Of a DNA stretch of 64,000 nucleotides, positions 40,830-56,397 are shown piece by piece (within the stretch, counting starts at the first letter, position 1; every line of letters starts with the position of its first letter). The notes below the pieces were generated by a model, which was not told the origin of the DNA, ran no database searches, and worked only from the letters and a program-made list of their open reading frames with translations. The position numbers were made by a program, and so were the translations under genes. The stretch is from a virus (lineage: Duplodnaviria; Caudoviricetes): positions 1 to 64,000 of IMG/VR virus record IMGVR_UViG_3300035070_003584. One strand, written 5' to 3'.

Positions 40830-41879
40830 ATGTCTATTATGGACAAACTCAAAAAGAATTCCAAGTTGAAACATACTGAGATTCTTTCTGAATCCAAATT
40901 TTTCAATGAAAAAGATATGGTACCTACTCGAGTACCTATGGTAAACGTTGCTCTATCTGGATCAATTGATGGTGGTCTTGCGCCTGGACTTACTGTCCTT
41001 GCTGGACCATCAAAACACTTTAAAACATCATTTGCACTCCTTATGGCTGGTGCATATATGCAGAAATATCCAGATGCTGTAATGCTTTTTTACGATTCAG
41101 AGTTTGGTTCACCACAATCTTACTTTGAACAATTTGATGTCGACACATCACGTGTTCTGCATACACCAATCACAAATGTAGAAGAACTTAAATTTGATCT
41201 GATTGGCCAACTTGAAGGCTTGGATCGCAAGGATAAAGTTATTGTAGTCATTGACTCTATTGGCAACCTTGCATCCAAAAAAGAGATGGAAGATGCCATT
41301 AATGAAAAATCAGTGGCAGATATGTCTCGTGCAAAGGCACTCAAAGGTTTGTTCCGTATGACAACACCTTATCTTGCCATGAAAGATATTCCACTTCTTG
41401 CAGTTAACCATACTTATCAAGAGATTGGATTGTTTCCTAAGGCTATTGTATCTGGTGGTACCGGCATTTACTATTCTGCCGACAACATTTGGATCCTAGG
41501 CCGTAGACAAAACAAAAAAGGTACCGAAGTTACTGGTTATGATTTTGTTATTAATGTAGAAAAGTCTCGGTATGTAAAAGAAAAGTCCAAGATTCCTATT
41601 ACAGTATCTTGGGAAGGTGGTGTTGCTCAATGGTCTGGTCTACTTGATGTAGCACTGGCTGGTGGTTATGCACAGAAACCAAGCAATGGTTGGTATGAAG
41701 CACTTGATCCATCTACCGGTGAAATTCTAACTGGTAAGACTCGTGAAGCTGGTACACTAGAAGAAGAATTCTGGACACCACTCTTTGAAAAAACTGACTT
41801 TAAAGAGTTCATCAAAAAGTCATACACAATTGGTCATAAATCAGAAATTGATATGGATGCGTTGGTAGATGAAGCATAA
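40830..41879 (+). CDS. uvsX: RecA-like recombinase UvsX
   Basis: GPSKHFKT, YDSEFG, DSIGNLAS, ADMSRAK. Confidence 0.96.
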   Translation: MSIMDKLKKNSKLKHTEILSESKFFNEKDMVPTRVPMVNVALSGSIDGGLAPGLTVLAGPSKHFKTSFALLMAGAYMQKYPDAVMLFYDSEFGSPQSYFEQFDVDTSRVLHTPITNVEELKFDLIGQLEGLDRKDKVIVVIDSIGNLASKKEMEDAINEKSVADMSRAKALKGLFRMTTPYLAMKDIPLLAVNHTYQEIGLFPKAIVSGGTGIYYSADNIWILGRRQNKKGTEVTGYDFVINVEKSRYVKEKSKIPITVSWEGGVAQWSGLLDVALAGGYAQKPSNGWYEALDPSTGEILTGKTREAGTLEEEFWTPLFEKTDFKEFIKKSYTIGHKSEIDMDALVDEA

Positions 41880-42165
41880 AGAAAATCAAACTTATCAATT
41901 GGTTCCGGGTGAGGAGGGCGATCAGCATTGGCTGGTTCGCTTCCTCGAAGGACCATATGCTGAAACAGTAATTCAGTATGGTTCTATTAGTGTGAATGAC
42001 GAAGAAGAAGGTACTATGTCCTTTAATTTCTTTGTTGAATCATCTCCAGATTCTGAATTAACTTCCGAAGATGTTGATTTGCAATTATGGGCTGGTGATG
42101 TTCTTCAAGAGATTCTTAGAGAAGCCATTATGGATGGTTCGGCAGTATTACAAGAACAAACATGA
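41869..42165 (+). CDS. Hypothetical protein (gene 40 position)
   Basis: Lies between uvsX and gene 41. Confidence 0.5.
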   Translation: MKHKENQTYQLVPGEEGDQHWLVRFLEGPYAETVIQYGSISVNDEEEGTMSFNFFVESSPDSELTSEDVDLQLWAGDVLQEILREAIMDGSAVLQEQT

Positions 42166-42653
42166 AAATATTAATATTTGGATTGCCGGGTTCTGGTAAA
42201 AGTACATTGGCCAAACCATTGGCTGAGTTATTGGGTGGTATACACATTAACGCAGATGTAGTTCGAACGAGCTATGATGACTGGGATTTTAGCTCTGAAG
42301 GAAGAATACGTCAAGCACAACGTATGAAACACTTGAGTGATGGTGTCATTATGGCTGGCAAAATTGCAGTTGCAGATTTTGTTTGTCCAACAAATATAGC
42401 TCGTATAGAATTTAATGCAGACTACACAGTATGGATGGATACTATTAAAGAAAGTCGTTACGAAGATACTAATGCTATGTTTGAAAAACCAATTGATGTT
42501 AACTATCATGTTAATGGATGGTTTGATGACACACATAAACAACTTGTAGCAGTTGTTAATAATTATATGAAACGCCAAGATGATATTCGTAATGACCGCG
42601 CCGAAGGTACTAGTATGGTAAATTTAGAAATAAAATCCAATAGGAAAAAGTAG
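42162..42653 (+). CDS. Adenylylsulfate kinase-like P-loop kinase
   Basis: GLPGSGKST, NAD.VR....DWDFS.EGR, ADFVCP, FEKP. Confidence 0.75.
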   Translation: MKILIFGLPGSGKSTLAKPLAELLGGIHINADVVRTSYDDWDFSSEGRIRQAQRMKHLSDGVIMAGKIAVADFVCPTNIARIEFNADYTVWMDTIKESRYEDTNAMFEKPIDVNYHVNGWFDDTHKQLVAVVNNYMKRQDDIRNDRAEGTSMVNLEIKSNRKK

Positions 42654-43039
42654 TGGATTTTGATCCCCTCAAACCAACAGTACAAATGCTTGGTCGTTGG
42701 CAACCATGGCATACTGGTCATACAGAACTTTTTAAAAGGGCTCATGCAAAAACCGGCCAAGTCTGTATACAGATTAGGCAAGTGCCAGAACAATATGACA
42801 ACCCATTTAATATTGATATAATAAAAATTAATATTATTGAAGCATTGGCAAAAGAGGGGTTTACAATTGCAGTAGATTATATTATAATGGTACTACCAAA
42901 TATAACTGATATTGCGTATGGTCGAAAGGTTGGCTATACATTTACAGAACATGATTTAGGTGAGGATATACACAATATATCAGCCACCAAAATTCGTAAA
43001 CAAATGAGAGAAGAAGGTACCCTTGCAGACAAATCTTGA
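42653..43039 (+). CDS. HIGH-family nucleotidyltransferase (cytidyltransferase-like)
   Basis: GRWQPWHTGH, DNPF, ISATKIR. Confidence 0.75.
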   Translation: MDFDPLKPTVQMLGRWQPWHTGHTELFKRAHAKTGQVCIQIRQVPEQYDNPFNIDIIKINIIEALAKEGFTIAVDYIIMVLPNITDIAYGRKVGYTFTEHDLGEDIHNISATKIRKQMREEGTLADKS

Positions 43040-44408
43040 ACAGACTATTCTTCGTAATCTTTTAACTGATGAAAAGTATATGCGTAAGGTATTACCTTTC
43101 ATCAAACCAGAATATTTCCAAGGAGTATATCGTACACTCTTTAAAGAGGCTGGTAAATATGTAGCAAAATATAATAAATTGCCTACATCAGAAACATTGG
43201 TTATTGAACTACAAGAATCAACTAATATGTCTGACGAACAATTTCAGATGTCGATGAATATTGTTCCACAGCTGTATTCTGGTGAGGTAATTGATCCGGA
43301 TTGGTTATTAAACTCTACCGAGAAATGGTGCCAGGATAGAGCAATTCATATTGCCATTATGGAATCTATTTCTATTATTGACGGTAAACATGAGTCAATG
43401 ACAAAGAATGCACTACCTGACCTTCTCAGTAAAGCTCTTGGTGTGTCATTTGATAATAGTGTTGGACACGATTATGTTGATGATTTCGAACAGCGTTATG
43501 ATTTTTACCATACAGAAGAAGATAGGATTCCATTTGATCTCGACTATTTTAATAAAATTACAAAGGGTGGTGTACCGCGTAAAACACTTAACATTGCCCT
43601 TGCAGGTACTGGCGTTGGCAAGTCTCTATTCATGTGTCATGTTGCTAGTGGCGCTTTGGTAGAAGGTAGAAATGTACTATACATAACTATGGAAATGGCT
43701 GAGGAAAGAATTGCCGAACGTATTGATGCTAATCTTCTCAATGTACCTATCGACCAACTTGAAAACCTTTCGAAGGATATGTTTAGAACTAAAGTTGAAA
43801 ATATTGCACGTAAGACAACCGGCAGATTAATTGTAAAAGAATACCCAACAGGCTCAGCTCATGCTGGTCATTTTAGGGCTTTGTTAAATGAATTAAAACT
43901 GAAAAGATCATTCGAACCAGATATTATCTTTATTGATTATTTGAATATCTGTTCTTCTTCTCGAATGAAAGCCATGGGAGGATCAATCAATTCTTATACA
44001 TACATTAAGGCGATTGCTGAGGAACTTAGAGGACTGGCGGTGGAGTTTAATGTACCGATTTTCTCGGCGACTCAAACGACGCGGTCGGGCTATGGCAATT
44101 CGGATGTCGGTTTGGAAGATACATCTGAGTCTTTCGGTCTACCAGCTACGGCGGATCTTATGTTCGCTCTTATCTCTACTGAAGAACTTGAAGGGCTCGG
44201 GCAGATGATGGTCAAACAATTGAAAAATAGATACAATGATCCAACATCAAATAAAAGATTTGTAATTGGAGTTGACCGATCTAAGATGAGATTATATGAT
44301 GTTGATGAAACAGAACAAAATCTAATGAAGGATGATACTCCAGTATTTGATAAATCTGTATCAGCAGAAAAAATTAGTGCAGAAAAGTTTAGGGAGTTTA
44401 AACTATGA
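43023..44408 (+). CDS. gp41: Replicative helicase gp41
   Basis: AGTGVGKS, YITMEMAEE, KEYPT, IDYLNI, SESFGLPATAD. Confidence 0.97.
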   Translation: MQTNLEQTILRNLLTDEKYMRKVLPFIKPEYFQGVYRTLFKEAGKYVAKYNKLPTSETLVIELQESTNMSDEQFQMSMNIVPQLYSGEVIDPDWLLNSTEKWCQDRAIHIAIMESISIIDGKHESMTKNALPDLLSKALGVSFDNSVGHDYVDDFEQRYDFYHTEEDRIPFDLDYFNKITKGGVPRKTLNIALAGTGVGKSLFMCHVASGALVEGRNVLYITMEMAEERIAERIDANLLNVPIDQLENLSKDMFRTKVENIARKTTGRLIVKEYPTGSAHAGHFRALLNELKLKRSFEPDIIFIDYLNICSSSRMKAMGGSINSYTYIKAIAEELRGLAVEFNVPIFSATQTTRSGYGNSDVGLEDTSESFGLPATADLMFALISTEELEGLGQMMVKQLKNRYNDPTSNKRFVIGVDRSKMRLYDVDETEQNLMKDDTPVFDKSVSAEKISAEKFREFKL

Positions 44409-44611
44409 TCTATAAAGGGCCAGAGGTTAGCACCTATTGGGGTGATGAGGAATATTCAAACCGTAAAGCAGTTGTGATGAAAGATGACAACGGATTTTAT
44501 GTTGAATTTTATAAAGAAGAAAAACTTTGGGAACGACGAAACGTCTATGATCATAGTGAAGTTTATGCAGAAAATGCTGCCGAAAACTTTGTAATGGGAA
44601 TTATTCAGTGA
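44405..44611 (+). CDS. Hypothetical protein
   Basis: HSE.YAE.AAENFV.G; coupled to gene 41. Confidence 0.6.
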   Translation: MIYKGPEVSTYWGDEEYSNRKAVVMKDDNGFYVEFYKEEKLWERRNVYDHSEVYAENAAENFVMGIIQ

Positions 44612-45321
44612 ACATTTATTGGAGTTCTTATATACCTGAGAGAAATAAAAGAATTCTTTCGGATATAAGATATCACGCGCCAGAACATGCTACGGAATAT
44701 CTTAAGAATAAGGTTAATCCAGAAATAAGAGAATCAGATTTTCTAAGATGCCCTGCATTTGCTAAACAGCAAAAAAACCTCTATGCATTGAAATTTTCTT
44801 TTTCTTATGAACTACGAATGGAAAATGGTGAGTTAAAGTCAGACAAGTATGATCAAAGGTTCTTTGACGATTTTGTAAGCGTTAGGGATCATGATAATTG
44901 TATGATATCTTTTCCAATGAGTTATGTGTTTATTGCAGAAACTCCTGTAGATATGGAGTATACTTCAGCATATAATGTAAGTAATGGTTTTGTTGATAAT
45001 TCAATAGTCATTCCAGGATCATTTGATATTGGAAAATGGTATAGACCTTTAGATTTGGCATTCCTTATGAAAGATAAAGAAAAGGGAGTTTCGTTTAATG
45101 AAAATGATGCATATGCCTTTGTCAACTTTCATACAAATAAAAAAGTAAATTTAATTAGATTCGAAACCACACCAGAACTTGTTGGTCTATTTAATTCTAT
45201 ATTACTTAGCAAATTTGCAAAATCAAAAGAAGTTAATGCTCTCAGTTGGTTTTATACTCTATTAGAAAAATCACAATATAAGAACAAAATATTGAAATTA
45301 GTGAAAGAGAATGTGTTATGA
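44608..45321 (+). CDS. Hypothetical protein
   Basis: 237-aa ORF coupled at both ends; RCPAF and IPG.FDIGKWYRP. Confidence 0.6.
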   Translation: MNIYWSSYIPERNKRILSDIRYHAPEHATEYLKNKVNPEIRESDFLRCPAFAKQQKNLYALKFSFSYELRMENGELKSDKYDQRFFDDFVSVRDHDNCMISFPMSYVFIAETPVDMEYTSAYNVSNGFVDNSIVIPGSFDIGKWYRPLDLAFLMKDKEKGVSFNENDAYAFVNFHTNKKVNLIRFETTPELVGLFNSILLSKFAKSKEVNALSWFYTLLEKSQYKNKILKLVKENVL

Positions 45322-45965
45322 CCGTAAATCTAATTAGTTATTCAAAGGGAGAGAAAGATGAAAGTCTCCAGGACATCATTGCGTATACAGCCCGTGTCTC
45401 GAATCCATCCAACCAAGACAACACCGAAACGTCAGAAAGACTACTACGATACCTCATCCGAGAAAAACACTGGTCACCATTTGAAATGGTTAGCGCTTGC
45501 TTGGAAGTAACTACAACTCGTGATATTGCTCGTCAGTTATTGAGACATAGATCATTCTCTTTTCAAGAGTTTTCTCAACGGTATGCAGATCCTACAAAGG
45601 ATTTACAGTTTAAGATGAAAGATGCAAGGCTTCAAGATACAAAGAATAGACAGAATAGCCTAGATGTAAATGATCCTAATCTACAATTAAATTGGTACAA
45701 ACAACAAGCGGAGGTCGTCAATGCAGCAAAGAAATCATATGAATGGGCAATTGAAAATGGTATTGCCAAAGAACAAGCTCGTGCAGTTCTACCAGAAGGT
45801 ATTATGGAATCTAGATTGTATGTTAACGGTACCATCCGGTCCTGGATCCATTATATCGACCTACGCTCTGGACACGGTACACAGAAAGAACACATAGAAT
45901 TAGCTCGAGCTTGTGCAACAGCACTCGAACCTATCTTTCCTATGATCAAAGAGTTTTGTCATTAA
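45318..45965 (+). CDS. thyX: Flavin-dependent thymidylate synthase
   Basis: ARVS, HWSPFE, QLLRHRSFSFQEFSQRY. Confidence 0.96.
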   Translation: MTVNLISYSKGEKDESLQDIIAYTARVSNPSNQDNTETSERLLRYLIREKHWSPFEMVSACLEVTTTRDIARQLLRHRSFSFQEFSQRYADPTKDLQFKMKDARLQDTKNRQNSLDVNDPNLQLNWYKQQAEVVNAAKKSYEWAIENGIAKEQARAVLPEGIMESRLYVNGTIRSWIHYIDLRSGHGTQKEHIELARACATALEPIFPMIKEFCH

Positions 45966-46332
45966 ATATTTAATTATATTCTTTTGTCTATTTACTACCA
46001 GTGTATATGCCGAAGGTCGTATGTATACTGGTAGTGAAGACAAAACTCACTGTACTCTATGGAACACAAGCCCATTACGATGGCCACAGACTATTTTAGG
46101 ACTCGAGCCAATGGAATGTAGACGTAAGGCAGTACCTCCTACAACAACCAATACTATAAACTGTAGACTCAAAAGACAATATGTCGATCCTGAGACCGAT
46201 GAACGTATGTGTATATACGAAAGAGGAGCCACAGGACATGGCGATCTTACAGTAGCGATGGATAAGTACTTCCATTGCCCTCGTACACAAAACTGTACAC
46301 AGAGTCCAGGTTCTGATGCTACTTTGGATTAA
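45961..46332 (+). CDS. Cys-rich, probably secreted protein (start may be ATT 45961 rather than ATG 46021)
   Basis: In-frame upstream signal-peptide-like segment IKYLIIFFCLFTTSVYA; 6 Cys in the mature part. Confidence 0.5.
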   Translation: MKYLIIFFCLFTTSVYAEGRMYTGSEDKTHCTLWNTSPLRWPQTILGLEPMECRRKAVPPTTTNTINCRLKRQYVDPETDERMCIYERGATGHGDLTVAMDKYFHCPRTQNCTQSPGSDATLD

Positions 46333-46384
46333 AAACTATTTTACTACTGGTTGTTTTTATTAAATAAAATTGTGCGTTTTTTTG

Positions 46385-46440
46385 TTTACAAACCTCTTTT
46401 TATATGATATAATAGTATCATAATCAAAAAGGAAGAGGAG
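46385..46440 (+). promoter_or_regulatory. Early promoter/leader cassette (copy 2)
   Basis: TTTACA-N17-TATAAT...ATAATCAAAAAGGAAGAGGAG. Confidence 0.85.
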
Positions 46441-46446
46441 CCTTAC

Positions 46447-46680
46447 ATGTCTAAACCAATTTCAAATGCCGCTTTTAAGCGTATGATTAAATCTGCTTCT
46501 GCAGAAAAGCGTCAGGAAATTCTTGAGCGCCAACTCAGAGTTCTTCCACAGTTTATTATGGAAGAAGTTGCTCGTATTCCTCAGTTACCTACATCACCTA
46601 AAGTGATTAAGGATTTGGAATCACGGCTTAAGTTGGTTCGGACAATGTGGACAGAGGAACTTATTCGGAGACATGCATAA
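46447..46680 (+). CDS. Early hypothetical protein
   Basis: Strong RBS after an early promoter. Confidence 0.7.
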   Translation: MSKPISNAAFKRMIKSASAEKRQEILERQLRVLPQFIMEEVARIPQLPTSPKVIKDLESRLKLVRTMWTEELIRRHA

Positions 46681-46850
46681 TGGCTTATCATTATATTAAA
46701 TTAGAAAAGTTTTTTATGGCATTGGCAAAAGATATGTCAGAAGAAAACATGCGTAAGCAACTTTTAAGTCTTACATCAGATGAGGTTCGTAAATTAAAGG
46801 ATCTCATGGATATTCATAATCTTACATATAACCATGAGGTTACTAAATGA
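46680..46850 (+). CDS. Hypothetical protein
   Basis: TAATG coupling. Confidence 0.55.
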   Translation: MAYHYIKLEKFFMALAKDMSEENMRKQLLSLTSDEVRKLKDLMDIHNLTYNHEVTK

Positions 46851-47392
46851 AGCGTTATGTTTTTCTTGGTGCCATGGCGGCATCATTTTTAGGTGGTCTT
46901 GTGAGTGGTAAATCGGCATTTGGTGCAGAAGCAAATGCAGGTTTACTACACGATTCTGTATCAGAACAGAAATGTCTGGCAGATAATATATACTTTGAGG
47001 CCCGTAACCAAATACATAGGGGAATGATTGGTGTCGCTCTTGTCACTCGTAACCGTGTTCTTGATAGTCGGTTTCCTCATTCATATTGTGAGGTTGTTAA
47101 ACAAGGACCTGAAAGACCATCATGGAAGCAAAATGGGACCATGGTCCCTCTTCGCCATCGCTGCCAATTTAGTTGGTATTGTGACGGCAAGTCTGATGAT
47201 ATTGGTTATCACGATACTGCTGTCTATGAACTTGCTCGTGCCATCGCTTTTAAAGTCTATCACGGAGAATTTCCCGACTTCACAGATGGTGCCACTCATT
47301 ATCATGCCGATTATGTTAGACCAGAATGGGCATCAACCAAAACCAAAACAATGAAGATTGATCAACACATTTTTTATAGATGGGAAAAATAA
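46847..47392 (+). CDS. Cell wall hydrolase (SleB/Hydrolase_2)
   Basis: Signal peptide; CLA.NIYFEAR, NRV...FP...C.VV.Q, CQFSW.CDG, GATHYHA.YV.P.W, H.FY. Confidence 0.92.
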   Translation: MKRYVFLGAMAASFLGGLVSGKSAFGAEANAGLLHDSVSEQKCLADNIYFEARNQIHRGMIGVALVTRNRVLDSRFPHSYCEVVKQGPERPSWKQNGTMVPLRHRCQFSWYCDGKSDDIGYHDTAVYELARAIAFKVYHGEFPDFTDGATHYHADYVRPEWASTKTKTMKIDQHIFYRWEK

Positions 47393-47715
47393 TGCAAAGA
47401 CTATTTCCAGAAGATAGTATTGAAAATATGCCAGACTTTAAATTTAATGAGGACATGTATATCGATGAGATCTCTGACTATATCATTGCGACATATAGTC
47501 AACACTACTCAAAGAACAATTTTCAAGCATCAGAGTTTATCTATGATGCTGGTCATGGTACTGGATTTAATATGGGTAATGTGATGAAGTATGCCCAGCG
47601 ATATGGTAATAAGGGTACTACCGATGATCATCGGAAGGATCTGATGAAGGTGATTCATTACGCGATTCTTCAGCTTCACGTACACGATACTTCGCAAGAA
47701 GAATTGCTTCTTTAA
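47392..47715 (+). CDS. DUF3310-like protein
   Basis: TYSQHY, GF.MGNV.KY..RYG.K, DL.K..HYA. Confidence 0.65.
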   Translation: MQRLFPEDSIENMPDFKFNEDMYIDEISDYIIATYSQHYSKNNFQASEFIYDAGHGTGFNMGNVMKYAQRYGNKGTTDDHRKDLMKVIHYAILQLHVHDTSQEELLL

Positions 47716-47848
47716 GGTGTTCTATTTCAAGTTCTAGTTCTGTCTTTGGTGCCTTAATATCTTCTAATGTCTTATCATAAAGATAAGCATTAAAGAAAAG
47801 TATTGCTACCAGTAAAGCAATGATTGACAATAGTATTACCTCTGACAT
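47618..47848 (-). CDS. Small membrane-anchored coiled-coil protein
   Basis: N-terminal TM segment; last gene of the minus-strand late unit. Confidence 0.45.
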   Translation of the reverse strand: MSEVILLSIIALLVAILFFNAYLYDKTLEDIKAPKTELELEIEHLKEAILLAKYRVREAEESRNESPSSDPSDDHR

Positions 47849-47855
47849 TTACCAT

Positions 47856-48062
47856 TTACTTAGTTAACATACCAGCTGGGAGTGTTCTGCATTCCCAGCT
47901 TCTTGGTTTGTATCCCTTCATATGTATATGCACATCTTCGGCCATTTGCAATGCACGGGCCTTACACACACGCTCAGATTCGTATGGTCCACGTTGATCT
48001 TCTAGCATAATGCAATAGTTTGGATTGCTCATCAGGCATGCATATACAATTGCTTGTATCAT
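47856..48062 (-). CDS. Small Cys-containing protein
   Basis: MIQAIVYACL...C...GPY.....C..R; coupled to the upstream ORF. Confidence 0.55.
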   Translation of the reverse strand: MIQAIVYACLMSNPNYCIMLEDQRGPYESERVCKARALQMAEDVHIHMKGYKPRSWECRTLPAGMLTK

Positions 48063-48541
48063 CAAACTGCCGTATACATTACAAAAATAAGTGCGGCGCC
48101 ACCAAGGATGACACATCCACCAATAATCATCATCATCTTAATCATTTCCCAGAACTCTTCATCTTCTTTTCTCTTTTGAATTCTGGCCAGTCTTTGCGCC
48201 TCTTTTGCTTCTACTATTCTTTTTTGTCTTTCATCCAAAATCTTTTGCCAAGTTCCTGGACCAAACCGCATATCAATTAGATTGCGCATCTCTTGCATCT
48301 TCTCTTCTGCAAGTTTGGCGTCAATCATTTCTTGGGCAACTGATTGGATACCGAACTGATCTTTCAGTCCCATACCGGATTTTTTGCCTCTTTTCTTCTG
48401 TACCTCTTCGGTACCTTTGAACATACCATCAATTGCACCAGCAATTTCACCAATGTCTTTTGCGGTGTCAATATTTGATTTTATAAATTCTACACTTGCC
48501 TTTACAAGTGCAATTCCTGCTAAAATTTCTGCTACAGGCAT
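48062..48541 (-). CDS. Membrane-anchored coiled-coil protein
   Basis: C-terminal TM segment; downstream of a minus-strand TATAAATA. Confidence 0.65.
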   Translation of the reverse strand: MPVAEILAGIALVKASVEFIKSNIDTAKDIGEIAGAIDGMFKGTEEVQKKRGKKSGMGLKDQFGIQSVAQEMIDAKLAEEKMQEMRNLIDMRFGPGTWQKILDERQKRIVEAKEAQRLARIQKRKEDEEFWEMIKMMMIIGGCVILGGAALIFVMYTAV

Positions 48542-48610
48542 TTTGATCTTCCTTCTACTGAAGTTAGATGTATGTCACTGTTGCCATATAATTAAATTCG
48601 CTCTCACATA

Positions 48611-48618
48611 TATTTATA
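48611..48618 (-). promoter_or_regulatory. T4-type late promoter (minus strand)
   Basis: TATTTATA is the reverse complement of TATAAATA. Confidence 0.65.
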
Positions 48619-48660
48619 TTTACAAACGTATCTAGATGTGTTATAATATTAATATAAATA
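48619..48660 (+). promoter_or_regulatory. Tandem sigma70 and late promoters of the tmRNA gene
   Basis: TTTACA(48619)-N17-TATAAT(48642) followed by TATAAATA (48653-48660). Confidence 0.75.
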
Positions 48661-48664
48661 AAAA

Positions 48665-48726
48665 TGATTCGGTGAAACTGGATGGATGTAGGCTGGACGT
48701 GGGGGCAGTACCCACCGCCTCCACCA
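48665..48726 (+). ncRNA. ssrA: Two-piece (permuted) tmRNA, acceptor piece
   Basis: T-arm GTGGG-GGCAGTA-CCCAC with alphaproteobacterial T-loop; acceptor strand CGCCTCC-A-CCA; 5' end approximate. Confidence 0.92.
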
Positions 48727-48746
48727 TAAACACACTAGAGGTAAAT

Positions 48747-48872
48747 ATGTTAGAAGCATTTGCAAATTGGGTATCAAAGTTTATTAAAGTTAAACCACAA
48801 CCAGGATATCTTGGTAGGGATATGGCAAAACACAGAGTCCATAGTGTAAAATATGAAGACCTTTGCAAGTGA
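48747..48872 (+). CDS. Small protein (41 aa) inside the tmRNA intervening segment
   Basis: GAGGT RBS and ATG; GTGA overlap with the next ORF. Confidence 0.65.
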   Translation: MLEAFANWVSKFIKVKPQPGYLGRDMAKHRVHSVKYEDLCK

Positions 48873-49102
48873 AAATAACACCAGAGAATACACCAAACAA
48901 ATATGTAAGGTGGTTTTGTTGGTTCATACAATTTAAATACGTATGGGACATTCAAACCTTATTTGAAAAATATCTTCCTATGGAGAAAGTGTATAGATTC
49001 CTAGGGTTTTATTTATTTTGGTTTATTTGGTTTTGTACACTATTACTTGTCTTATACAAGATTACTGGTAGTATGGAATTTCTTCTCTGGTTTGATGAAT
49101 AG
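48869..49102 (+). CDS. Small membrane protein (77 aa) inside the tmRNA intervening segment
   Basis: GTG start coupled to the previous stop; aromatic-rich TM segment. Confidence 0.6.
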   Translation: MKITPENTPNKYVRWFCWFIQFKYVWDIQTLFEKYLPMEKVYRFLGFYLFWFIWFCTLLLVLYKITGSMEFLLWFDE

Positions 49103-49114
49103 TGTGCTTATGAT

Positions 49115-49256
49115 GGGGGCGAAATAGGATCGACAGATGCAAGAAGGCAGTGGAGAATCACAAACGTAAATGCAAACGATAACTTTGCTCCTGAGATGCG
49201 CCTAGCGGCATAATCTCTGGGCTGGCAACTTGCCTTGAAACAGAAAAGTTGCAACT
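49115..49256 (+). ncRNA. ssrA: Two-piece (permuted) tmRNA, coding piece; tag ANDNFAPEMRLAA
   Basis: GGGGGCGAAATAGGATCGAC 5' end giving G3:U70; tag frame 49172-49213; terminal pseudoknot with AACAGAA; 3' end approximate. Confidence 0.93.
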
Positions 49257-49273
49257 TACCCAAGGAGGGTGCT

Positions 49274-49612
49274 ATGAAATACTACCTAATAATGTTCCTT
49301 ATGCTATTTGCAACATCTGCATTTGCTGAAGTAGAAACTCGTTCAAAACCAGTTCAATGTGGAGGTATAGAAGGTCTTCTTACTATCATTGATCAAGCAG
49401 AAGAAAAGGCTTTACTTGGCGCTTTAGGTGAAGTCACAATGCCTGATATGACTAAACAAATCTTGCCAATCTATGTGTTTGCAAATACAGATACAGGCAC
49501 ATTTACTATCTTTGAAATGCATCCCGACAGTAATGAAGTTTGCTTAATTGGTTATGGTACTAGTATTGATTTTAATGTACAGGGATATTTTGAACCTAAA
49601 ACAAATAGTTAA
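49274..49612 (+). CDS. Secreted/periplasmic hypothetical protein
   Basis: Signal peptide MKYYLIMFLMLFATSAFA; GGAGG RBS. Confidence 0.7.
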   Translation: MKYYLIMFLMLFATSAFAEVETRSKPVQCGGIEGLLTIIDQAEEKALLGALGEVTMPDMTKQILPIYVFANTDTGTFTIFEMHPDSNEVCLIGYGTSIDFNVQGYFEPKTNS

Positions 49613-51096
49613 TGAATCACTGCTTAATTATGAACATCGAGGAACGAAGTCACACACGTTCTTTAGGCCCATATAGAATAGCTCATTGGCTAAGGGATAA
49701 TGGGTGGGATACTGAGGTAATAGACTATTGCGCTCATTGGTCACATGACGAGTTAATGGAGTTATGTTTATCTCGAATTAATGATAATACGCGATTCATA
49801 GGATTTTCATCCTTATTTACTGGATGGACAAATCATATGGAAATATTTTCACTTTTTCTTAAGAAACATTATCCAAATATAGTACAAATTTCCGGTTCAT
49901 CTAGTCTTCCAAATGCGGATATGTCAGCAGTTGATTATCACATATATGGGTTTGGTGAAAAGGCTTTAGATGTTTTACTTAAATATCTATTCTCAAATGG
50001 TGAGGCACCCCGAGCGACAAATTATTTTAATACACAATTAATTGATGCATCTCATTATCCAGCATATCCACTTAAGGAATATACTGTTCTCTATGAAGAA
50101 AGAGATTATCTTCAACCATGGGAATTTCTTTCAATTGAAACCGGCAGAGGCTGTAAATTTAAATGTAGTTTCTGTAACTTTTCAGTACTTGGTGTAAAGG
50201 GAGATTATAGCACTTCACAAGATAGTTTTGAAAAACAATTAAATGAAAACTATGATAGATGGGGTATTAAAAACTATGTGATTGCCGAAGAGACATTCAA
50301 TGACCGTACAGAAAAAGTTGAAAAATTTAGCCAAGTAGTACAAAGATTGAATTTTGAACCATGGTTTGCTGCATATATTAGAGCTGATTTACTTATATCT
50401 AGAAAGCATGAAGTAGAACATTTGGCTAATATGAATGTATTCGGCCAATTTTATGGAGTTGAATCTTTTAACCAAAAAACCTCTAAAGCCATTAAAAAAG
50501 GCATGGACCGAGGTAAAATGAAAGAAGGTCTTCTTAAAGTAAAAGAATATTTTGAGAAAAACAATAATAGATATCGAGGCAATATATCTCTTATTGTAGG
50601 CGCGCCATATGAAACAAAGGAATCTTTATATAGTTCTCTCGATTGGCTAGTTGATAACTGGAAGACCCAAAGCTTTACTGCATATCCTCTTGGAATCCCA
50701 ATTTATGGAAGACAATCTATATTAAGTGGTTCTTATGGTGAAAACGAATATGAAGAAATATCAGCAGAAGAATTGTATCAAAAGCATGATAAAACATATG
50801 TCGATAAAGTATTAAAAAAGAATAACATTATAAAAGACAATAAAATACTTGAAAAAAAATGGCTAATGTGGAAAAATAAACAAATGGATGTTGTTGAAGC
50901 ATTTAAAATACATGATCATATGTGTGATGTAATGCGAAAAGAGAAATTTAAAAAATCCACATTTGCTGTAGCAGAATTTAGTGGTAAAGAATCTACTATT
51001 GATGATAAATTAAAATTGGATGTAAATGCTGTAAAAACATTTAGAGATGAAGAATTGCAATGGGTTGAGGAATATAAAAAAAAGAAATTATCATGA
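49612..51096 (+). CDS. B12-binding-domain radical SAM enzyme
   Basis: N-terminal G.YRIA..LR..G..VID and GFGE; ETGRGCKFKCSFC (CxxxCxxC); GVES. Confidence 0.88.
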   Translation: MNHCLIMNIEERSHTRSLGPYRIAHWLRDNGWDTEVIDYCAHWSHDELMELCLSRINDNTRFIGFSSLFTGWTNHMEIFSLFLKKHYPNIVQISGSSSLPNADMSAVDYHIYGFGEKALDVLLKYLFSNGEAPRATNYFNTQLIDASHYPAYPLKEYTVLYEERDYLQPWEFLSIETGRGCKFKCSFCNFSVLGVKGDYSTSQDSFEKQLNENYDRWGIKNYVIAEETFNDRTEKVEKFSQVVQRLNFEPWFAAYIRADLLISRKHEVEHLANMNVFGQFYGVESFNQKTSKAIKKGMDRGKMKEGLLKVKEYFEKNNNRYRGNISLIVGAPYETKESLYSSLDWLVDNWKTQSFTAYPLGIPIYGRQSILSGSYGENEYEEISAEELYQKHDKTYVDKVLKKNNIIKDNKILEKKWLMWKNKQMDVVEAFKIHDHMCDVMRKEKFKKSTFAVAEFSGKESTIDDKLKLDVNAVKTFRDEELQWVEEYKKKKLS

Positions 51097-51665
51097 TACA
51101 TTATTTACCTATTAACATACCTAGATTACCACCAATTAAATATGATGGAATGAGAACTAGTCATTATGCATGGTGGAGCATGATTAAGATAACAGAAGAG
51201 ACTGAAAATCGTTATGATGATTCTGTTATTAAGCCTGAATTTCTAGAAATGAATCCACATTTTAAACAGTGGTTAAAACATCTTCCTATAAAAAGATTAA
51301 TCAATATCAAATTGCATATGCAAGATAGAAAAGCAGATCCGCATATTGATTTCAATAAACCAAATGAAAATTTGGATTTATATAGAGTAACTCGAGCAAA
51401 TGAACCTTGTGGTTATAGAGTTGTTATAAATGGTTCTAATAAAAATTGTATGTATGTTATAGATAATAATGGTAATAAAATTTATACAGAATTGCCGACT
51501 GAAACAAATACGTATGCAATAAATCATACTCAATGTATACATGGTACAACGGATGATATTGATAGATGTATTATGTTCTTTCAGTTTGAGGTAGATTCTC
51601 AAAAACATACTCAATTAATTAATCAAAGTGCATTGGTATTTAAGAATTATGTTATTTCTATATAG
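51093..51665 (+). CDS. Fe(II)/2OG dioxygenase-like protein
   Basis: PHID...HG...R pattern (HxD..H). Confidence 0.55.
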   Translation: MIHYLPINIPRLPPIKYDGMRTSHYAWWSMIKITEETENRYDDSVIKPEFLEMNPHFKQWLKHLPIKRLINIKLHMQDRKADPHIDFNKPNENLDLYRVTRANEPCGYRVVINGSNKNCMYVIDNNGNKIYTELPTETNTYAINHTQCIHGTTDDIDRCIMFFQFEVDSQKHTQLINQSALVFKNYVISI

Positions 51666-52236
51666 TTATATTTTATATTATATCTTAGCTTCAATTGGTA
51701 TTACTTTTGGATATCATAGATATTTTTCTCATAAAGAATTTAATGCCCCAAAATGGCTAGAATTTATTTTTTTATATTGTGGTTTATTATGCGGTGGTAG
51801 ATCTGCATTAACATGGTCAGCCGTACATAGAATGCATCACGCTTATTCAGATACACCAAATGATCCACACTCACCAAAATATAAACGATGGTATGAAATA
51901 CTTCTTTCACTTTGGAAGGTAAAAAAAATACCGAGAAGGTTTTGTAAAGACTTACTTAATAACAAATTAGTAATGCATTTTCATAATGATGGCTGGAAAT
52001 ATATGTTCCTTACATATTTTTTTGCTCTTATGATAGGATGGCAATATCTAGTAATGTTTATTTTCGTCTTTATTTTATCATATATTTCGTTTGGTCTTTT
52101 AAATTATCTAGGACATAATAATAACGGGCCTATAAATAATATTATAATCAATATATTTGCACCATTTGAAGGAAATCATAAAGATCATCATGAAAAATCT
52201 AAGAAGAAGATATCTGCCAAACTTCGCAACTCTTAA
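51649..52236 (+). CDS. Membrane fatty acid desaturase-like protein
   Basis: His boxes HRYFSH, HRMHH, HKDHH; DPHSP; TM segments. Confidence 0.88.
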   Translation: MLFLYSYILYYILASIGITFGYHRYFSHKEFNAPKWLEFIFLYCGLLCGGRSALTWSAVHRMHHAYSDTPNDPHSPKYKRWYEILLSLWKVKKIPRRFCKDLLNNKLVMHFHNDGWKYMFLTYFFALMIGWQYLVMFIFVFILSYISFGLLNYLGHNNNGPINNIIINIFAPFEGNHKDHHEKSKKKISAKLRNS

Positions 52237-52933
52237 TAGCGAATATAATTTTGACGTAGAAAAATTAAAAGAATCTTATTTTTATAGTATTAATAAAAAC
52301 AAAGATGAAGGTATGAACCATCATTTTACTATTAATGATGTTGAAAATAAGGATAAGAAAAAATTTTATAACACAGACGAATCTGGTTATGAACAAGTAA
52401 ATCTTACTTCTTATAATGAAGTTGATACATCGGATGGATATGAAAAATCACAGTGGCAGTGGTGGAATTCTAGAAAAGATTTAACACTAGCAGAACGCAA
52501 ATCATTCTATCGAAGAGCATTACAAAATAAATTAGATGGTTTGGAATCAACTCTAGAAACATCTTATGCAAAGATGAATGCATTATCTGATGGTTATATG
52601 AAAGATATTCTTCAACAATTTAAAGGTAAGGTAACTCGAGTAAGATGGGCAGTTGCAAATCCCGGCATGGAAATGCAACCACATTTGGATTATGATACAA
52701 CATATGCTGTAAGATTCCATTATCCCATTATTACAAACCCGGATGCAATTATCTGCGTTGATCGTCATAATGAGGGTGTTCAAAAAATTCACATGCCGGC
52801 AGACGGTAGGGTATTTTTTATCAATCAGGGGTTTAAGCACTGGATTGAAAATAATGGAGATACACCTAGAGTTCATTTAATTGTAACTGTCGTTGGTCAA
52901 GAAGATATGGTAGAATGCTCTCCTATTCTTTAA
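52190..52933 (+). CDS. Asp/Asn beta-hydroxylase-like Fe(II)/2OG dioxygenase
   Basis: PHLD, RFHYPIITN, H..EN.....RVHLI. Confidence 0.78.
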   Translation: MKNLRRRYLPNFATLNSEYNFDVEKLKESYFYSINKNKDEGMNHHFTINDVENKDKKKFYNTDESGYEQVNLTSYNEVDTSDGYEKSQWQWWNSRKDLTLAERKSFYRRALQNKLDGLESTLETSYAKMNALSDGYMKDILQQFKGKVTRVRWAVANPGMEMQPHLDYDTTYAVRFHYPIITNPDAIICVDRHNEGVQKIHMPADGRVFFINQGFKHWIENNGDTPRVHLIVTVVGQEDMVECSPIL

Positions 52934-53673
52934 AATTAAAACTAATTTGGCTAATAGCAATGTGTATAAGTGCATATTGGTTGATGACTACTACAATGCC
53001 ATGGTGGTTGATATTATTGGTGTTTTATGCCTCTGTTTTTATTGCAAGAGTTGGTGGTGAAATAAGCTATCATAGATATTTTACCCATAGAGCATTTAAA
53101 ACTAGTAAAATTATGCATAATATATTATTATGGTGGGGATCTTTATTAGGTGTTGGAAGTTGTATATCATGGTCTTGTATGCATAGAGCACATCATGCAA
53201 CTGCAGATACTGATGATGATCCACACAGTCCACATAAAATTGGCATTTTAAAAACTTTCTTATTATCACCGGATACCTCAAAGCTTACATTTAAGAATGT
53301 TGGAGATTTATTCAAAGATCCAATGCAAAAGTTTATTCATAAAAATTATTTTAAAATCATATTTATCTGGATCGTTTCACTTGGTATAATAACACAATGG
53401 TCAATGTTACCTTTGGTTTTATTTTTTGCACTACCAGTTTCTTTTTTATGGATTATGTCTGGCATTACAAACTGTTTTGGGCATATGCTGGGTTATAGAA
53501 ACTTTGAAACAAAAGATCATAGTACTAATCACCATTTAACTAGATGGTTATTATTAAATGTCGGTTTACATAATAATCATCATTATAAACCTACAGCAAT
53601 AGATCATAATCTAAATAAAAAATGGTATGAATTTGACTTAGAAAGTTATTTTATAAAAATTATAAAATCATGA
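52915..53673 (+). CDS. Membrane fatty acid desaturase-like protein
   Basis: His boxes HRYFTH, HRAHH, HNNHH; DPHSP. Confidence 0.9.
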   Translation: MLSYSLKLKLIWLIAMCISAYWLMTTTMPWWLILLVFYASVFIARVGGEISYHRYFTHRAFKTSKIMHNILLWWGSLLGVGSCISWSCMHRAHHATADTDDDPHSPHKIGILKTFLLSPDTSKLTFKNVGDLFKDPMQKFIHKNYFKIIFIWIVSLGIITQWSMLPLVLFFALPVSFLWIMSGITNCFGHMLGYRNFETKDHSTNHHLTRWLLLNVGLHNNHHYKPTAIDHNLNKKWYEFDLESYFIKIIKS

Positions 53674-54224
53674 TTACAACACATCATATATCAGATGCGC
53701 CTCTTATGGAAGTAAAAACTTGGATAAGAAATAATGCGCATGGTAAACATTCTGAAAACTATAGGAATATTGAGCTTAATAGTGATCATAAAGCCATATC
53801 AATTGAAAGGTATGATGGAAAAAATATTACCTGTGTTTCCACCATATACAATAGAGATTATTATCCAGAAAGCTGTGTAAGAATTTTTAATAAATGGCTA
53901 GCAATCCGTAAAATTGGTGGAACAAAAAAGAATATATTATCTGACAGAGCAATTCAAATGGCAACTCAGCAGATTCATTTTTCGGAAATGATGGGATATA
54001 CTTCATTCTTTATTTCATATCATAGTTACATTCCAAAATTTTGTAATGAATTGACTAAAAGGTTAAATGAAAAAACAGAATGGAATTGGAATCACGAAGA
54101 ATTAGTAAGAGTTGCTCCTGGAGATAATAAGAAATGTTATCAACATGTAATTTATGCCGGTGAAGGAATAGAAAAACTTATAAATAGAAAAATGGATATA
54201 CAAACTTGGAGATCATTGTGCTAA
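53670..54224 (+). CDS. Hypothetical protein (possible GNAT-like fold)
   Basis: Coupled within the island; fold guess is weak. Confidence 0.45.
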   Translation: MITTHHISDAPLMEVKTWIRNNAHGKHSENYRNIELNSDHKAISIERYDGKNITCVSTIYNRDYYPESCVRIFNKWLAIRKIGGTKKNILSDRAIQMATQQIHFSEMMGYTSFFISYHSYIPKFCNELTKRLNEKTEWNWNHEELVRVAPGDNKKCYQHVIYAGEGIEKLINRKMDIQTWRSLC

Positions 54225-54844
54225 AATTATTTGAAAACTTAGACTTTTCTGAGTCCATTTCAATCACAAAAGAATTACCGGCATATAAAAAGATTGCAAC
54301 AGATCTACCGGTTACAGAACTACTTGCTGAAATGAATTTCTTTTGTACAGAAGAAAACAAATATCCGGATAATTCTCCATGGTTTAGTGTATACGGGCCA
54401 GACGTAACTATGAGTCGAGCTGATTTAGCATCTATAGGTTTATTACACTATTATCAGCAATGGCAGATGACAGAAAAACAAATTGAAACTCCATGGCAAA
54501 ATTGGAGAGCAGGCATTGGTGCTTCTACAAAAACTATTTTTGAAACACAATTATCAAGTTTTCATAGACCTAGATATGTAGAAGTAGGTCCTGGTTGGGA
54601 AGTAACCAATCACAAAGATTGGACAGATAATAATAAATTAGGTCTAAGATGTCATTTGATTCTCGAGACGAATGATCAATGCATGCATTATGTTACGGAT
54701 GATGCCGGTATAGAACATGAATTACATTTTGTTCCTGGTGATGTATGGTTTTATGATATTTCTAGAATGCACAGAGCACATAATCTAGGTACCACAATTC
54801 GTAAGAGTATCAGTTTTGAATTATTTAATGATGATCTTCTTTAA
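54206..54844 (+). CDS. Asp/Asn beta-hydroxylase-like Fe(II)/2OG dioxygenase
   Basis: HKD, RCHL.LETN, HRAHN.....R. Confidence 0.72.
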   Translation: MEIIVLKLFENLDFSESISITKELPAYKKIATDLPVTELLAEMNFFCTEENKYPDNSPWFSVYGPDVTMSRADLASIGLLHYYQQWQMTEKQIETPWQNWRAGIGASTKTIFETQLSSFHRPRYVEVGPGWEVTNHKDWTDNNKLGLRCHLILETNDQCMHYVTDDAGIEHELHFVPGDVWFYDISRMHRAHNLGTTIRKSISFELFNDDLL

Positions 54845-55277
54845 CACATCCTACAATATGTATTCTTTCATCATCTGATGCATTAATTGCTGTATGGATT
54901 TTAGTAGTATCTACTAGATACCAATTGCCATCGGCTGGATATCTATAAACTTTATCATCAATAATAAACATACATTTATCATTTGTAATAAGTGGTATAT
55001 GAATTCTTTTAGTTAAATCATAATGATAACTATAACAAACTCTAGGTTTCATTCTCATTAATCTAGTTCTATACATACCAAGTTTTTTAATAATAGAATT
55101 TGTATATGGTATATCAAAAAGAGGATAGATAAATTCTTCTTCATTATGATTTAATTCTAAAACCTTACCAACACCATAAAATGGATCACCATTAGGCTCA
55201 ACACCTTGCAATGATATTTGAGTTTGTTCTGGTACTAATTCCAATTCCAGTAAAATTCTATCTACATCGATGGACAT
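54825..55277 (-). CDS. Asp/Asn beta-hydroxylase-like Fe(II)/2OG dioxygenase
   Basis: HYD, RIHIPLITN, HTAIN.....RIHIV. Confidence 0.78.
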   Translation of the reverse strand: MSIDVDRILLELELVPEQTQISLQGVEPNGDPFYGVGKVLELNHNEEEFIYPLFDIPYTNSIIKKLGMYRTRLMRMKPRVCYSYHYDLTKRIHIPLITNDKCMFIIDDKVYRYPADGNWYLVDTTKIHTAINASDDERIHIVGCVKEDHH

Positions 55278-55702
55278 ATAGTTAACTCTTTTACTCTATA
55301 AGGTTGGTAGATAACCCAATCAATCACTTCTGCCACATATTCCAAAGGTAATTTAGGCTTATCTACATGAGCAGATCTTTCTGTATCAAAGTAACCAAAA
55401 TTTAAAATGGTGGTATTTATACCCTGCCAAAATAATTGATCGTTCACCTTACGAAGAGTGTGTTTCTCAATTCCATAACGAAAATTATCTTTATAACCTT
55501 TTGTCCAGTCTGAGGCAGCACTTCCTATATTAATAATTCTTTTATTAAGCTTTGCTGCTTTGTAGAGTAATTCTACTTGCTCAAAACCATCGTGTTTACA
55601 GTTAATAAAGATGTCACTTTCCTTCAGTGAAGAGACTGTCGGGTAAGTGTCGCTCAACAATTTCCCAAGACCCCTTCTCGTACCAGTGATATAAAACTTC
55701 AT
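55262..55702 (-). CDS. Compact short-chain dehydrogenase/reductase
   Basis: ITGTRRGLG, INIGS, YxxxK. Confidence 0.75.
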   Translation of the reverse strand: MKFYITGTRRGLGKLLSDTYPTVSSLKESDIFINCKHDGFEQVELLYKAAKLNKRIINIGSAASDWTKGYKDNFRYGIEKHTLRKVNDQLFWQGINTTILNFGYFDTERSAHVDKPKLPLEYVAEVIDWVIYQPYRVKELTICPSM

Positions 55703-56240
55703 AATATGATTTAATCTCTTCTATATTGGTAAAATATTCTTCATAATTTATATATTTCGAAAATTTTATAAGTGAAGTTTTCCATTCTATATCTTCATAA
55801 TATATAGTGTCATAGTTAAAATCATCTAACCAATATTGCCAAGTCAGAAATAATTTAAGCGTATTTTTGTAGTTAATAGCTTCTTTTGGTGTTTTATCAA
55901 TCTTAAGTGGATTTTCACACCAAGTAAGTTTCCATTTATTCTCGTGCTGATATAAATGACTGAGGTATTGATTCCATAGATTTCTTCTCTTTAGAATATA
56001 GATTTCTTCAAATTTATAAAAATTTTGAAACCAATTTATATGTTTTTTAATCTGATGCACGTGTACTTTATAACAATATTCATTACCTAATTTTCTTTCA
56101 CTTTCTAGAAACTCAATAGGATTATTATTATGTAGAAATGGCTCTTCATGTGAGGTGTGCAGTAATTGAGATTCTTTTCTTAGCCATTTTATGGCACAAG
56201 TTGAACCAGATCGAGGTGTACACAATATGATTTTTTTCAT
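55614..56240 (-). CDS. Sulfotransferase-like protein (Stf0-type)
   Basis: TPRSGST 5'-PAPS loop; L.RRN...QYLS 3'-motif; YED. Confidence 0.72.
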   Translation of the reverse strand: MKKIILCTPRSGSTCAIKWLRKESQLLHTSHEEPFLHNNNPIEFLESERKLGNEYCYKVHVHQIKKHINWFQNFYKFEEIYILKRRNLWNQYLSHLYQHENKWKLTWCENPLKIDKTPKEAINYKNTLKLFLTWQYWLDDFNYDTIYYEDIEWKTSLIKFSKYINYEEYFTNIEEIKSYYEVLYHWYEKGSWEIVERHLPDSLFTEGK

Positions 56241-56272
56241 AGATGTACCATTACCTCAAACATAACTCTATT

Positions 56273-56301
56273 ATTATACCATAGTACATCGTACATGTAA
56301 A
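56273..56301 (-). promoter_or_regulatory. Sigma70-type promoter for the minus-strand sulfotransferase unit
   Basis: Reverse complement TTTACA-N17-TATAAT. Confidence 0.75.
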
Positions 56302-56316
56302 CAAAAAAAAGTTTAA

Positions 56317-56390
56317 ATAAAACGAAATTAGTTGTTTACAGCGCCGTTTTTTTGTGATATAATATATGTATAATCAAAAAGGAAGAGGAG
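56317..56390 (+). promoter_or_regulatory. Early promoter/leader cassette (copy 3)
   Basis: ATAAAACGAAATTAGTTGTTTACA-N17-TATAAT...ATAATCAAAAAGGAAGAGGAG. Confidence 0.87.
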
Positions 56391-56397
56391 TTCTATT

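Follow-up and report, generated by a model that had tools for sequence, protein, structure and literature searches.

The 64,000-nucleotide (nt) stretch of viral DNA analysed here (the window; positions 1 to 64,000 of the IMG/VR record IMGVR_UViG_3300035070_003584, Caudoviricetes) probably contains a phage transfer-messenger RNA (tmRNA) gene of the permuted, alphaproteobacterial type with two small genes lodged in the spacer between its halves, such that both open reading frames (ORFs) would be read on the precursor RNA and a stem would dock the two halves. The sequence evidence consists of a tmRNA signature, two coding ORFs, a conserved closing stem, cargo that varies between related loci and a contrast between phages and bacteria. 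A sequence-only reading of positions 48665-49256 had earlier described the locus as a two-piece phage tmRNA whose stem-closed loop carries two protein-coding ORFs, and this description is upheld by a match to the Rfam family RF04321, by covariation in the stem, by coding-type conservation of the ORFs and by the variable cargo. The viral record from which the window comes measures 93 kb and is 55% complete; features given with coordinates below lie on the + strand unless called antisense.

The order of the tmRNA parts is permuted: CGCCTCCACCA, ending at 48726, lies upstream of GGGGGCG at 49115. The acceptor piece (48665-48726) comprises the 5′ strand of helix 2, the T arm, the 3′ acceptor strand and an encoded CCA, and the coding piece (49115-49256) comprises the 5′ acceptor strand, the partner strands of helix 2, the tag frame and a structured 3′ part, its putative 3′ end being the position at which the match to the alpha_tmRNA model stops. 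The acceptor strand CGCCTCC-A-CCA, which ends at 48726, and its partner GGGGGCG, which begins at 49115, give a tRNA-Ala-like acceptor stem (GGGGGCG/CGCCUCC) with G3 opposite a U. The T arm reads GUGGG-GGCAGUA-CCCAC with an uninterrupted T loop, and TGATTC (48665-48670) is complementary to GAATCA (49155-49160), forming the outer pairing of helix 2. The tag frame (49172-49213) runs from a GCA resume codon to a TAA at 49211-49213 and reads ANDNFAPEMRLAA, with the expected alanine resume codon at its start and a hydrophobic ..LAA end before the stop. The two pieces, their cross-pairing, the G3:U pair and the tag all lie where the sequence-only reading had placed them.

The Rfam model RF04321 (tmRNA_permuted) matched the window at 48668-49213 over model positions 1-213 of 213, with 64.5 bits against a cut-off of 47 and an E-value of 3.7e-10. 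A tmRNA finder and a covariance model had been named beforehand as checks on the gene; RF04321 bore it out, the alpha_tmRNA model RF01849 came in just below its cut-off, and the finder ARAGORN called no tmRNA gene in the window. Among related loci, ARAGORN called the permuted tmRNAs whose spacers measure 53-183 nt (L316, L319, L001 and L124 among them) and missed those whose spacers measure 186-267 nt (such as L060, L050 and L126); the miss apparently reflects a limit of the tool on spacer length and not the absence of a tmRNA. Both helices that join the pieces covary among relatives: the acceptor stem occurs as CGCCTCC/GGGGGCG, CGACTCC/GGGGTCG and CAGCTCC/GGGGCTG, and the outer pair of helix 2 as TGATTC/GAATCA (the window, L126 and L317) or ACAGTT/AACTGT (L316 and L319). 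Tag frames are intact in the related loci, with differing tags. No group I intron family reached its gathering score in the window, and none was found at an E-value of 1 or less in 48560-49400.

Between the CCA and the coding piece lies an intervening segment (IVS) of 388 nt which, jointly with that of the near-identical relative L123, is the longest among the 147 tmRNA loci measured, and which holds two ORFs. ORF1 (48747-48872; ATG at 48747, TGA at 48870-48872) encodes 41 amino acids (aa) and belongs to a small-peptide family of phages marked by the motif KYEDLCK. Its Shine-Dalgarno (SD) sequence GAGG (48738-48741) follows directly after the left arm of the closing stem and ends 5 nt before the ATG. 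ORF2 (48869-49102; GTG at 48869, TAG at 49100-49102) encodes a predicted single-helix membrane protein of 77 aa, with one strongly hydrophobic stretch at about residues 44-65; its start overlaps the stop of ORF1 as GTGA, and an alternative TTG start is present at 48863. The coupled ORFs thus fill the loop as had been proposed, from a ribosome-binding site right after the left arm to a TAG within the right arm.

An independent contig (L123/L315) has the same layout as the window and differs from it mostly at synonymous sites. In a gapless comparison with L123 there are 18 differences in the IVS, of which 16 fall at codon position 3, eight in each ORF, one at position 1 and one at position 2 (binomial P 1.7e-6), with none in the acceptor piece or the arms and two in the coding piece. 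In 14 DNA runs, half or more of the words sampled from the stretch are present, and an assembly artefact was ruled out on these two grounds. ORF2 is represented by 14 protein clusters in a collection of 5.8 billion proteins (59-100% identity to the query, 17 invariant columns), and its median ratio of nonsynonymous to synonymous substitution rates (dN/dS) is 0.075 over 12 distinct in-IVS coding sequences (55 usable of 66 pairs). The ORF1 family has six protein clusters and 308 relatives in viral contigs, with a median dN/dS of 0.26 for 10 distinct in-spacer copies and 0.21 for 38 free-standing ones. Because of the third-position bias, the low dN/dS, the invariant columns and the homologues found outside tmRNA genes, ORF1 and ORF2 are, as far as sequence can tell, real protein-coding genes; the coding-type conservation whose absence would have spoken against the sequence-only reading was found for both.

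The peptides of the ORF1 family (free-standing copies L321-L394) are 33-52 aa long with a variable, hydrophobic or basic N-terminus, and share an invariant C-terminus, ..HR.H..KYEDLC(K/M), in which the two His and the Cys are spaced in a way that might allow metal binding. Pfam returned no family for either protein, PHROGs none for ORF1 and a single match for ORF2 at an E-value of 0.13, and profile searches of the PDB no match for either at E-values up to 1. The best protein-atlas score for ORF2 was 0.80, a lead only.

The stem that closes the spacer lies wholly inside it and extends the acceptor helix. Its left arm (48727-48737) forms a 15-nt arm together with the ACCA at 48723-48726, and its right arm (49100-49114) contains the TAG of ORF2. 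Between 48723-48737 (ACCATAAACACACTA) and 49100-49114 (TAGTGTGCTTATGAT), 13 of 15 positions pair, the number originally reported. In the predicted fold of 48664-49262 the T arm is formed and the acceptor helix is prolonged by the closing stem, with 8+5+7 pairs; these elements are common to the minimum-free-energy and centroid folds (z score -2.26), so that cofolding of the precursor recovers the stem in both structures. This fold leaves the SD sequence and the ATG of ORF1 unpaired at the base of the stem.

For covariation we compared 82 distinct arm pairs, made up of the unbiased viral sample (among the matches listed) and the window. In 74-82 of the 82, positions +2 to +10 after the CCA are paired with the bases that precede GGGG, and each of these positions shows 3-6 pair types. 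On average 10.9 positions are paired before the second mismatch, a figure that drops to 1.5-2.0 if the partner is slid by 1-3 nt, whereas 40 bacterial arm pairs, likewise among the matches listed, pair more weakly in register (mean 4.1). Because the in-register pairing covaries across the 82 arm pairs and is weaker in bacteria, the comparison argues that the closing stem is under selection; its conservation in relatives accords with the helix extension put forward from the window alone. One group of loci (L055, L037, L048, L082 and relatives; spacers of 159-186 nt) has an SD for its first short ORF (AAAGGAGAT, right after the CCA) that doubles as the left arm, so that formation of the stem would hide the ribosome-binding site. 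This group mostly has a first frame of 23-28 aa ahead of a frame for a membrane peptide of 38-44 aa.

Phage spacers are longer than bacterial ones. Among the matches listed, to which all counts in this paragraph refer, the IVS has a median of 88.5 nt at 118 viral loci with both tmRNA ends (46 above 100 nt and 25 of at least 150 nt), against a median of 35 nt and a maximum of 127 nt at 113 bacterial loci (three above 100 nt and none of at least 150 nt; Mann-Whitney P 1.6e-13). In this sample the bacterial spacer is thus normally short, as the sequence-only reading had said. Both samples were drawn with one shared 26-nt acceptor pattern, and the bacterial one consists mostly of alphaproteobacterial metagenome-assembled genomes. 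A sense ORF covers at least 60% of the IVS in 22 of the 24 distinct viral spacers of at least 150 nt, 18 of these 22 ORFs having an SD-like 4-mer, whereas an antisense ORF reaches the same coverage in 6 of 24 (Fisher P 4.6e-6). The long spacers would thus be long because they carry genes.

These genes are not confined to ORF1 and ORF2. Other IVS ORFs include the 38-44-aa membrane peptide (9 loci, dN/dS 0.13), a 35-aa peptide (4 loci, dN/dS 0.24), a 68-aa membrane protein (2 loci, dN/dS 0.20) and several singletons of 52-75 aa, and altogether they appear to make up about ten unrelated families. The blastp clustering of IVS peptides is crude, in that unrelated ORFs were merged via a shared read-through of the tmRNA 5′ end, and a link of L087 and L103 to ORF2, obtained by blastp without composition correction, was not relied on. 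Several other families have their stop codon inside the mature coding piece, at about +11 to +13 or at +30 to +42 (L319 and L322, with a truncated ORF1; L018, L069, L071 and L084; L006; L044; L057, L075 and L081), and family G is also among those with a stop beyond the cleavage site. The comparisons indicate that many uncultured phages use the tmRNA spacer to carry differing small genes.

The same variability is seen on a finer scale in an alignment of five tmRNAs, which carry ORF1 and ORF2 (the window), ORF2 alone (L126), ORF1 alone (L317), ORF1 with the terminal codons of ORF2 (L316), and ORF1 in truncated form (L319). By cargo, the IVS measures 260-267 nt with ORF2 only, 152 nt with ORF1 only, 183 nt with ORF1 and the remnant of the 3′ end of ORF2, and 119 nt with the truncated ORF1. 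The tmRNA bodies of L316 and L319 are visibly unlike that of the window. Cassettes thus differ between related loci, as the idea of variable cargo had predicted.

Among 72 ORF2 loci, 24 lie in an IVS (388 nt in L123, 260-267 nt with ORF2 alone in the others) and three just upstream of a short-spacer tmRNA (L124:3001-3225, L125 and L130); around the other 45, all with an identity of at most 68%, nhmmer found no tmRNA within 3 kb, and Rfam agreed in 12 of 12 tested. For ORF1, the best 80 of the 308 relatives in viral contigs were fetched. With nhmmer, 14 of these were placed in an IVS and three just upstream of a tmRNA, and Rfam added three in-IVS loci (L336, L341 and L349) among 20 tested of the other 63; the nhmmer models of the tmRNA ends under-count, and counts of loci without a tmRNA by nhmmer only are upper bounds. 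A flank-motif rule divided the 76 full-length ORF1 copies from this set into 16 in spacers, three upstream and 57 free. The ORF1 and ORF2 families therefore accompany tmRNA genes in more than one arrangement. ORF1-family genes stand immediately upstream of a permuted tmRNA at L333:1465-1590, L334 and L335, and at L141-L143:1474-2258 six tRNA genes in a row lie just upstream of a tmRNA with ORF2 in its spacer.

A sigma-70-like promoter, TTTACA-17-TATAAT with a TG before the -10 (48619-48647; 11 of 12 matches, a consensus match only), is the sole + strand site of this kind upstream of the tmRNA, the other + strand site (49130-49158) falling within the coding piece. A weak T4-type late-promoter-like motif, TATAAATA (48653-48660), stands 4 nt before the 5′ helix of the tmRNA; motifs of this type, as quoted in the accessible methods of the paper on the cultured phage Melnitz (PMC9004378), have 15 matches in the window against 9.5 expected. 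Consensus scans found neither a sigma-70-like site nor TATAAATA inside the IVS (48727-49114), and no terminator was found in a scan after the tmRNA. Being without a promoter of their own, the ORFs would be made as part of the pre-tmRNA transcript.

Contigs of metatranscriptome assemblies run from the acceptor piece through the CCA into ORF1 or ORF2 (48697-48906, 48706-48852 and 48699-48891; three runs from two studies), while one further contig covers ORF2 (48877-49076) and another links the coding piece with the ORF that follows it (49124-49326). Such contigs, which carry no information on ends, strand or level, show the spacer and the acceptor part on one continuous sequence in RNA libraries. 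The uncovered positions 48560-48663 (4/4 runs) and those beyond 49261 (3 runs) are not readable as transcript ends, and other organisms contribute to the RNA depth summed over the conserved parts of the tmRNA. Splicing was considered for contig joints that skip 360-388 nt; these have other or unknown letters between their two sides and are read as relatives with shorter spacers.

We propose that transcription from the promoter at 48619-48647 would yield a pre-tmRNA that includes both ORFs, and that ribosomes would most likely read ORF1 and ORF2 on this nascent or unprocessed precursor. The covarying closing stem of 11-15 base pairs would then join the tmRNA halves regardless of the size of the insert, the acceptor helix would form, and a cut by RNase P at 49114/49115 with 3′ trimming to the CCA at 48726 would leave two mature pieces; 'RNase P and tRNase Z' are given as probable for permuted precursors in the accessible part of a review (PMC3985003). 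On these terms the spacer would be a site at which a compact phage genome tolerates small genes and expresses them. Translation on the precursor is preferred because other IVS ORF families stop only inside the mature coding piece.

The order of events might be reversed, with processing excising the IVS as a stem-closed bicistronic mRNA that is translated afterwards. We regard this as possible, although the balance of the evidence tells against it. It suits the window, where both stops lie within the IVS, and many other IVS ORFs finish 1 to 15 nt short of the cleavage site; the predicted fold places the SD sequence and ATG of ORF1 in an open loop at the base of a helix that is long and conserved. 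That near-continuous helix of about 20 pairs (acceptor stem, ACCA/UGAU and closing stem) could be a target of a double-strand-specific RNase such as RNase III. Its cut would leave an mRNA protected by a hairpin, for which T7 early mRNAs and the stems that flank rRNA offer a comparison. Against release, the ORFs of family G, of L006 and L044 and of the truncated ORF1 forms, that of Melnitz included, would lack a stop after cleavage, and in the RNA contigs the IVS is continuous with the acceptor piece, although ends cannot be read from contigs. The gene-cargo slot of the sequence-only reading is therefore retained at the genomic level; the released bicistronic mRNA that it added is its own inference, and the stops that lie 13 to 42 nt inside the coding piece in other families weigh against its general application.

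A bolder proposal, which we consider unlikely, is that the spacer is a general exchangeable slot for small genes whose translation is mechanically tied to tmRNA maturation and senses the state of host translation and rescue. A ribosome finishing the last ORF would cover the right arm and the first bases of the coding piece, delaying the acceptor helix and the RNase P cut, and where the stop lies past the cleavage site, cutting would make a non-stop mRNA that is itself a tmRNA substrate. If this were true, the phage would sense the host's capacity for translation and ribosome rescue and set its tmRNA supply and peptide output by it. The truncated mRNA of ArfA is under trans-translation control, as the abstract of PMC10107115 mentions, and the logic is comparable to the proposed coupling.

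It is improbable that the two genes are independent of the tmRNA, with a promoter of their own inside the IVS that makes their position irrelevant to expression. Both families occur free-standing elsewhere, and consensus scans miss unusual phage promoters; set against this, no sigma-70-like site or TATAAATA was found in 48727-49114, ORF1 begins 21 nt after the CCA, and in the 22 of 24 long IVSs (among the matches listed) that are filled by an ORF from the CCA to the right arm there is no room for a promoter. Still less credible is a dead remnant, in which a small-gene cassette has split and disabled the tmRNA. The unusually long IVS, the RF01849 score just under its cut-off, the reduced pseudoknot 1 and the missing ARAGORN call fit such a remnant, but the tmRNA halves have zero or two differences from L123 against 18 in the ORFs between them, the acceptor stem and helix 2 covary in ORF-carrying lineages, the stem is kept in 82 arm pairs, tag frames are intact and many diverged contigs retain the layout. 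Frames left open by chance in a structured, AT-rich spacer, for which one might cite a 76-aa antisense ORF also present in the window's IVS and the missing strand bias of short IVSs, are refuted as far as sequence analysis can go by the substitution pattern (16 of 18 differences at third positions, dN/dS of 0.075 and 0.26), the 17 invariant columns over 14 clusters and the homologues outside tmRNA, and can hardly be entertained.

Several points weigh against the reading of a functional gene-bearing tmRNA translated on its precursor. The window scored 49.2 bits with RF01849, under the cut-off of 50 (E-value 1.2e-12 in an 841-nt search), although relatives with the same cargo exceed it (L123 68.7, L126 78.8 and L141 108.1). 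In the pseudoknot-1 region, between helix 2 and the resume codon (49135-49171), about 26 nt that occur as a block in the stretches compared, L316:40-437 and L319:1416-1749, are missing from the window, as they are from L126 and L317; 16 model positions are unmatched there in the Rfam alignment, and full activity of a tmRNA with so reduced a pseudoknot 1 is not assured. A gene for SmpB was not found in the 93-kb record, itself 55% complete, so that SmpB of the host would be needed. In the window both ORF stops lie inside the IVS, and the argument for precursor translation rests on other loci. The RNA-library evidence consists of low-depth assembled contigs in which DNA carry-over is possible. 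We infer that the locus forms one transcription unit, that its ORFs are translated before processing, where and by which enzymes the RNA is cut, and that the tmRNA is active.

The comparative evidence has limits of the same kind. Loci L002-L121 are the sole unbiased viral sample, with figures among the matches listed, and L123-L194 and L315-L394 were fetched via ORF homology and are biased by construction. Within the former, IVSs of 60-149 nt have no excess of sense over antisense frames (25/54 vs 22/54; 13 vs 10 of 21 at 100-149 nt and 12 vs 12 of 33 at 60-99 nt), and the rule of a gene-filled spacer is limited to long IVSs. The majority of ORF1 and ORF2 relatives stand apart from any tmRNA gene, so that a functional tie to tmRNA is at most putative.

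Upstream of the locus (46847-47715) lie genes for a cell-wall hydrolase (Hydrolase_2, E-value 1.4e-19) and a DUF3310 protein. Downstream of the tmRNA (49259-51096), an SD sequence AAGGAGG at 49259-49265 precedes an ORF of 112 aa with a hydrophobic N-terminus, followed by a 494-aa radical SAM protein with a weak match to a B12-binding domain. Isolated phages gave no megablast match to 40000-60000 of the window and no tblastn match to ORF1 or ORF2, and the sole blastn match of 48600-49300 was 41 nt of a Melnitz-type ssrA.

In tmRNA, one of the most thoroughly studied small RNAs, the spacer of the permuted form has so far been treated as short, throw-away sequence, and the finding of conserved genes of many unrelated families there, specifically in phages, bears on three matters. 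For annotation, the common finder missed every tested locus with a spacer of at least 186 nt and gene callers report the nested ORFs without context, so that phage tmRNAs and their spacer cargo are probably under-counted in public records. For RNA biology, one transcript would be both a message and the precursor of a two-part structured RNA, and the interplay of translation and processing becomes testable; in terms of genome economy, small genes would be expressed without a promoter or terminator of their own. The locus also points to two widespread peptide families of marine phages, ORF1 and ORF2. Experiments are feasible with Melnitz, which is in culture together with its host, strain H5P1, and whose spacer has a truncated version.

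Phage-borne two-piece tmRNAs are already known, and protein genes within the permuted spacer are apparently new. By ARAGORN, 53 tmRNAs of the two-piece phage type were counted among 18,146 phage genomes, according to the accessible part of PMC9004378. Searches of the full-text literature, which took in the available text of PMC11915505, PMC5746245 and PMC10117765 and had the supplementary tables of PMC9004378 and PMC11915505 outside their scope, turned up no description of a permuted tmRNA whose spacer holds protein genes. The closest counterparts are the permuted tmRNAs of alphaproteobacteria and of Melnitz (MZ577097), which share with the window the order acceptor, CCA, IVS and coding piece, the G3:U pair and a tag of the ANDN...LAA type. 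The acceptor piece of Melnitz matches that of the window over 41 nt at 95%, and in both cases a promoter stands immediately before ssrA and the setting is marine and myovirus-like. They differ in the IVS, which is 388 nt long with two conserved genes in the window, 142 nt in Melnitz and 35 nt in bacteria (median of the 113 loci among the matches listed). A glutamine riboswitch follows ssrA in Melnitz (PMC9004378, accessible part) and was not found in the window with Rfam. The Melnitz record has no coding sequence annotated inside ssrA and the accessible text of PMC9004378 mentions none; its spacer (L001:3054-3215) contains an unannotated frame of the ORF1 family (68% identity over 38 aa to L060) that is without the conserved C-terminus and stays open over the first 42 nt of the mature coding piece.

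Two other kinds of insert in tmRNA genes have been described, both in the accessible part of PMC11915505. In the intron form, a group I intron lies in the T-loop, with a LAGLIDADG homing-endonuclease gene in 36/883. As in the window, a protein gene then sits within a segment removed from the precursor; the intron form, however, is self-splicing and its gene serves the mobility of the intron, whereas the window has no intron, its RNA ends would not be rejoined, and its cargo, unlike that of the introns, belongs to diverse small phage proteins without an endonuclease match. Permuted tmRNA spacers with a tRNA-Ala gene or a repetitive element are recorded as single cases, and the longest tmRNA gene in this 2025 database paper measures 1152 bp. 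These inserts, like those of the window, indicate that the spacer tolerates foreign sequence, yet they are one-offs, whereas the phage inserts are protein genes that are under purifying selection and that recur across many phage lineages.

A broader likeness is to transcripts that combine messages with structured RNAs, as the locus in the window would do with coding sequence and tmRNA on one transcript. In mixed tRNA-mRNA transcripts such as the T4 tRNA region, the E. coli tRNA-tufB operon and the 'tRNA punctuation' of mitochondria, RNase P and 3′ processing separate the parts. There the mRNA lies beside the RNA genes, whereas in the window it would lie inside a single RNA gene, whose halves must find each other again.

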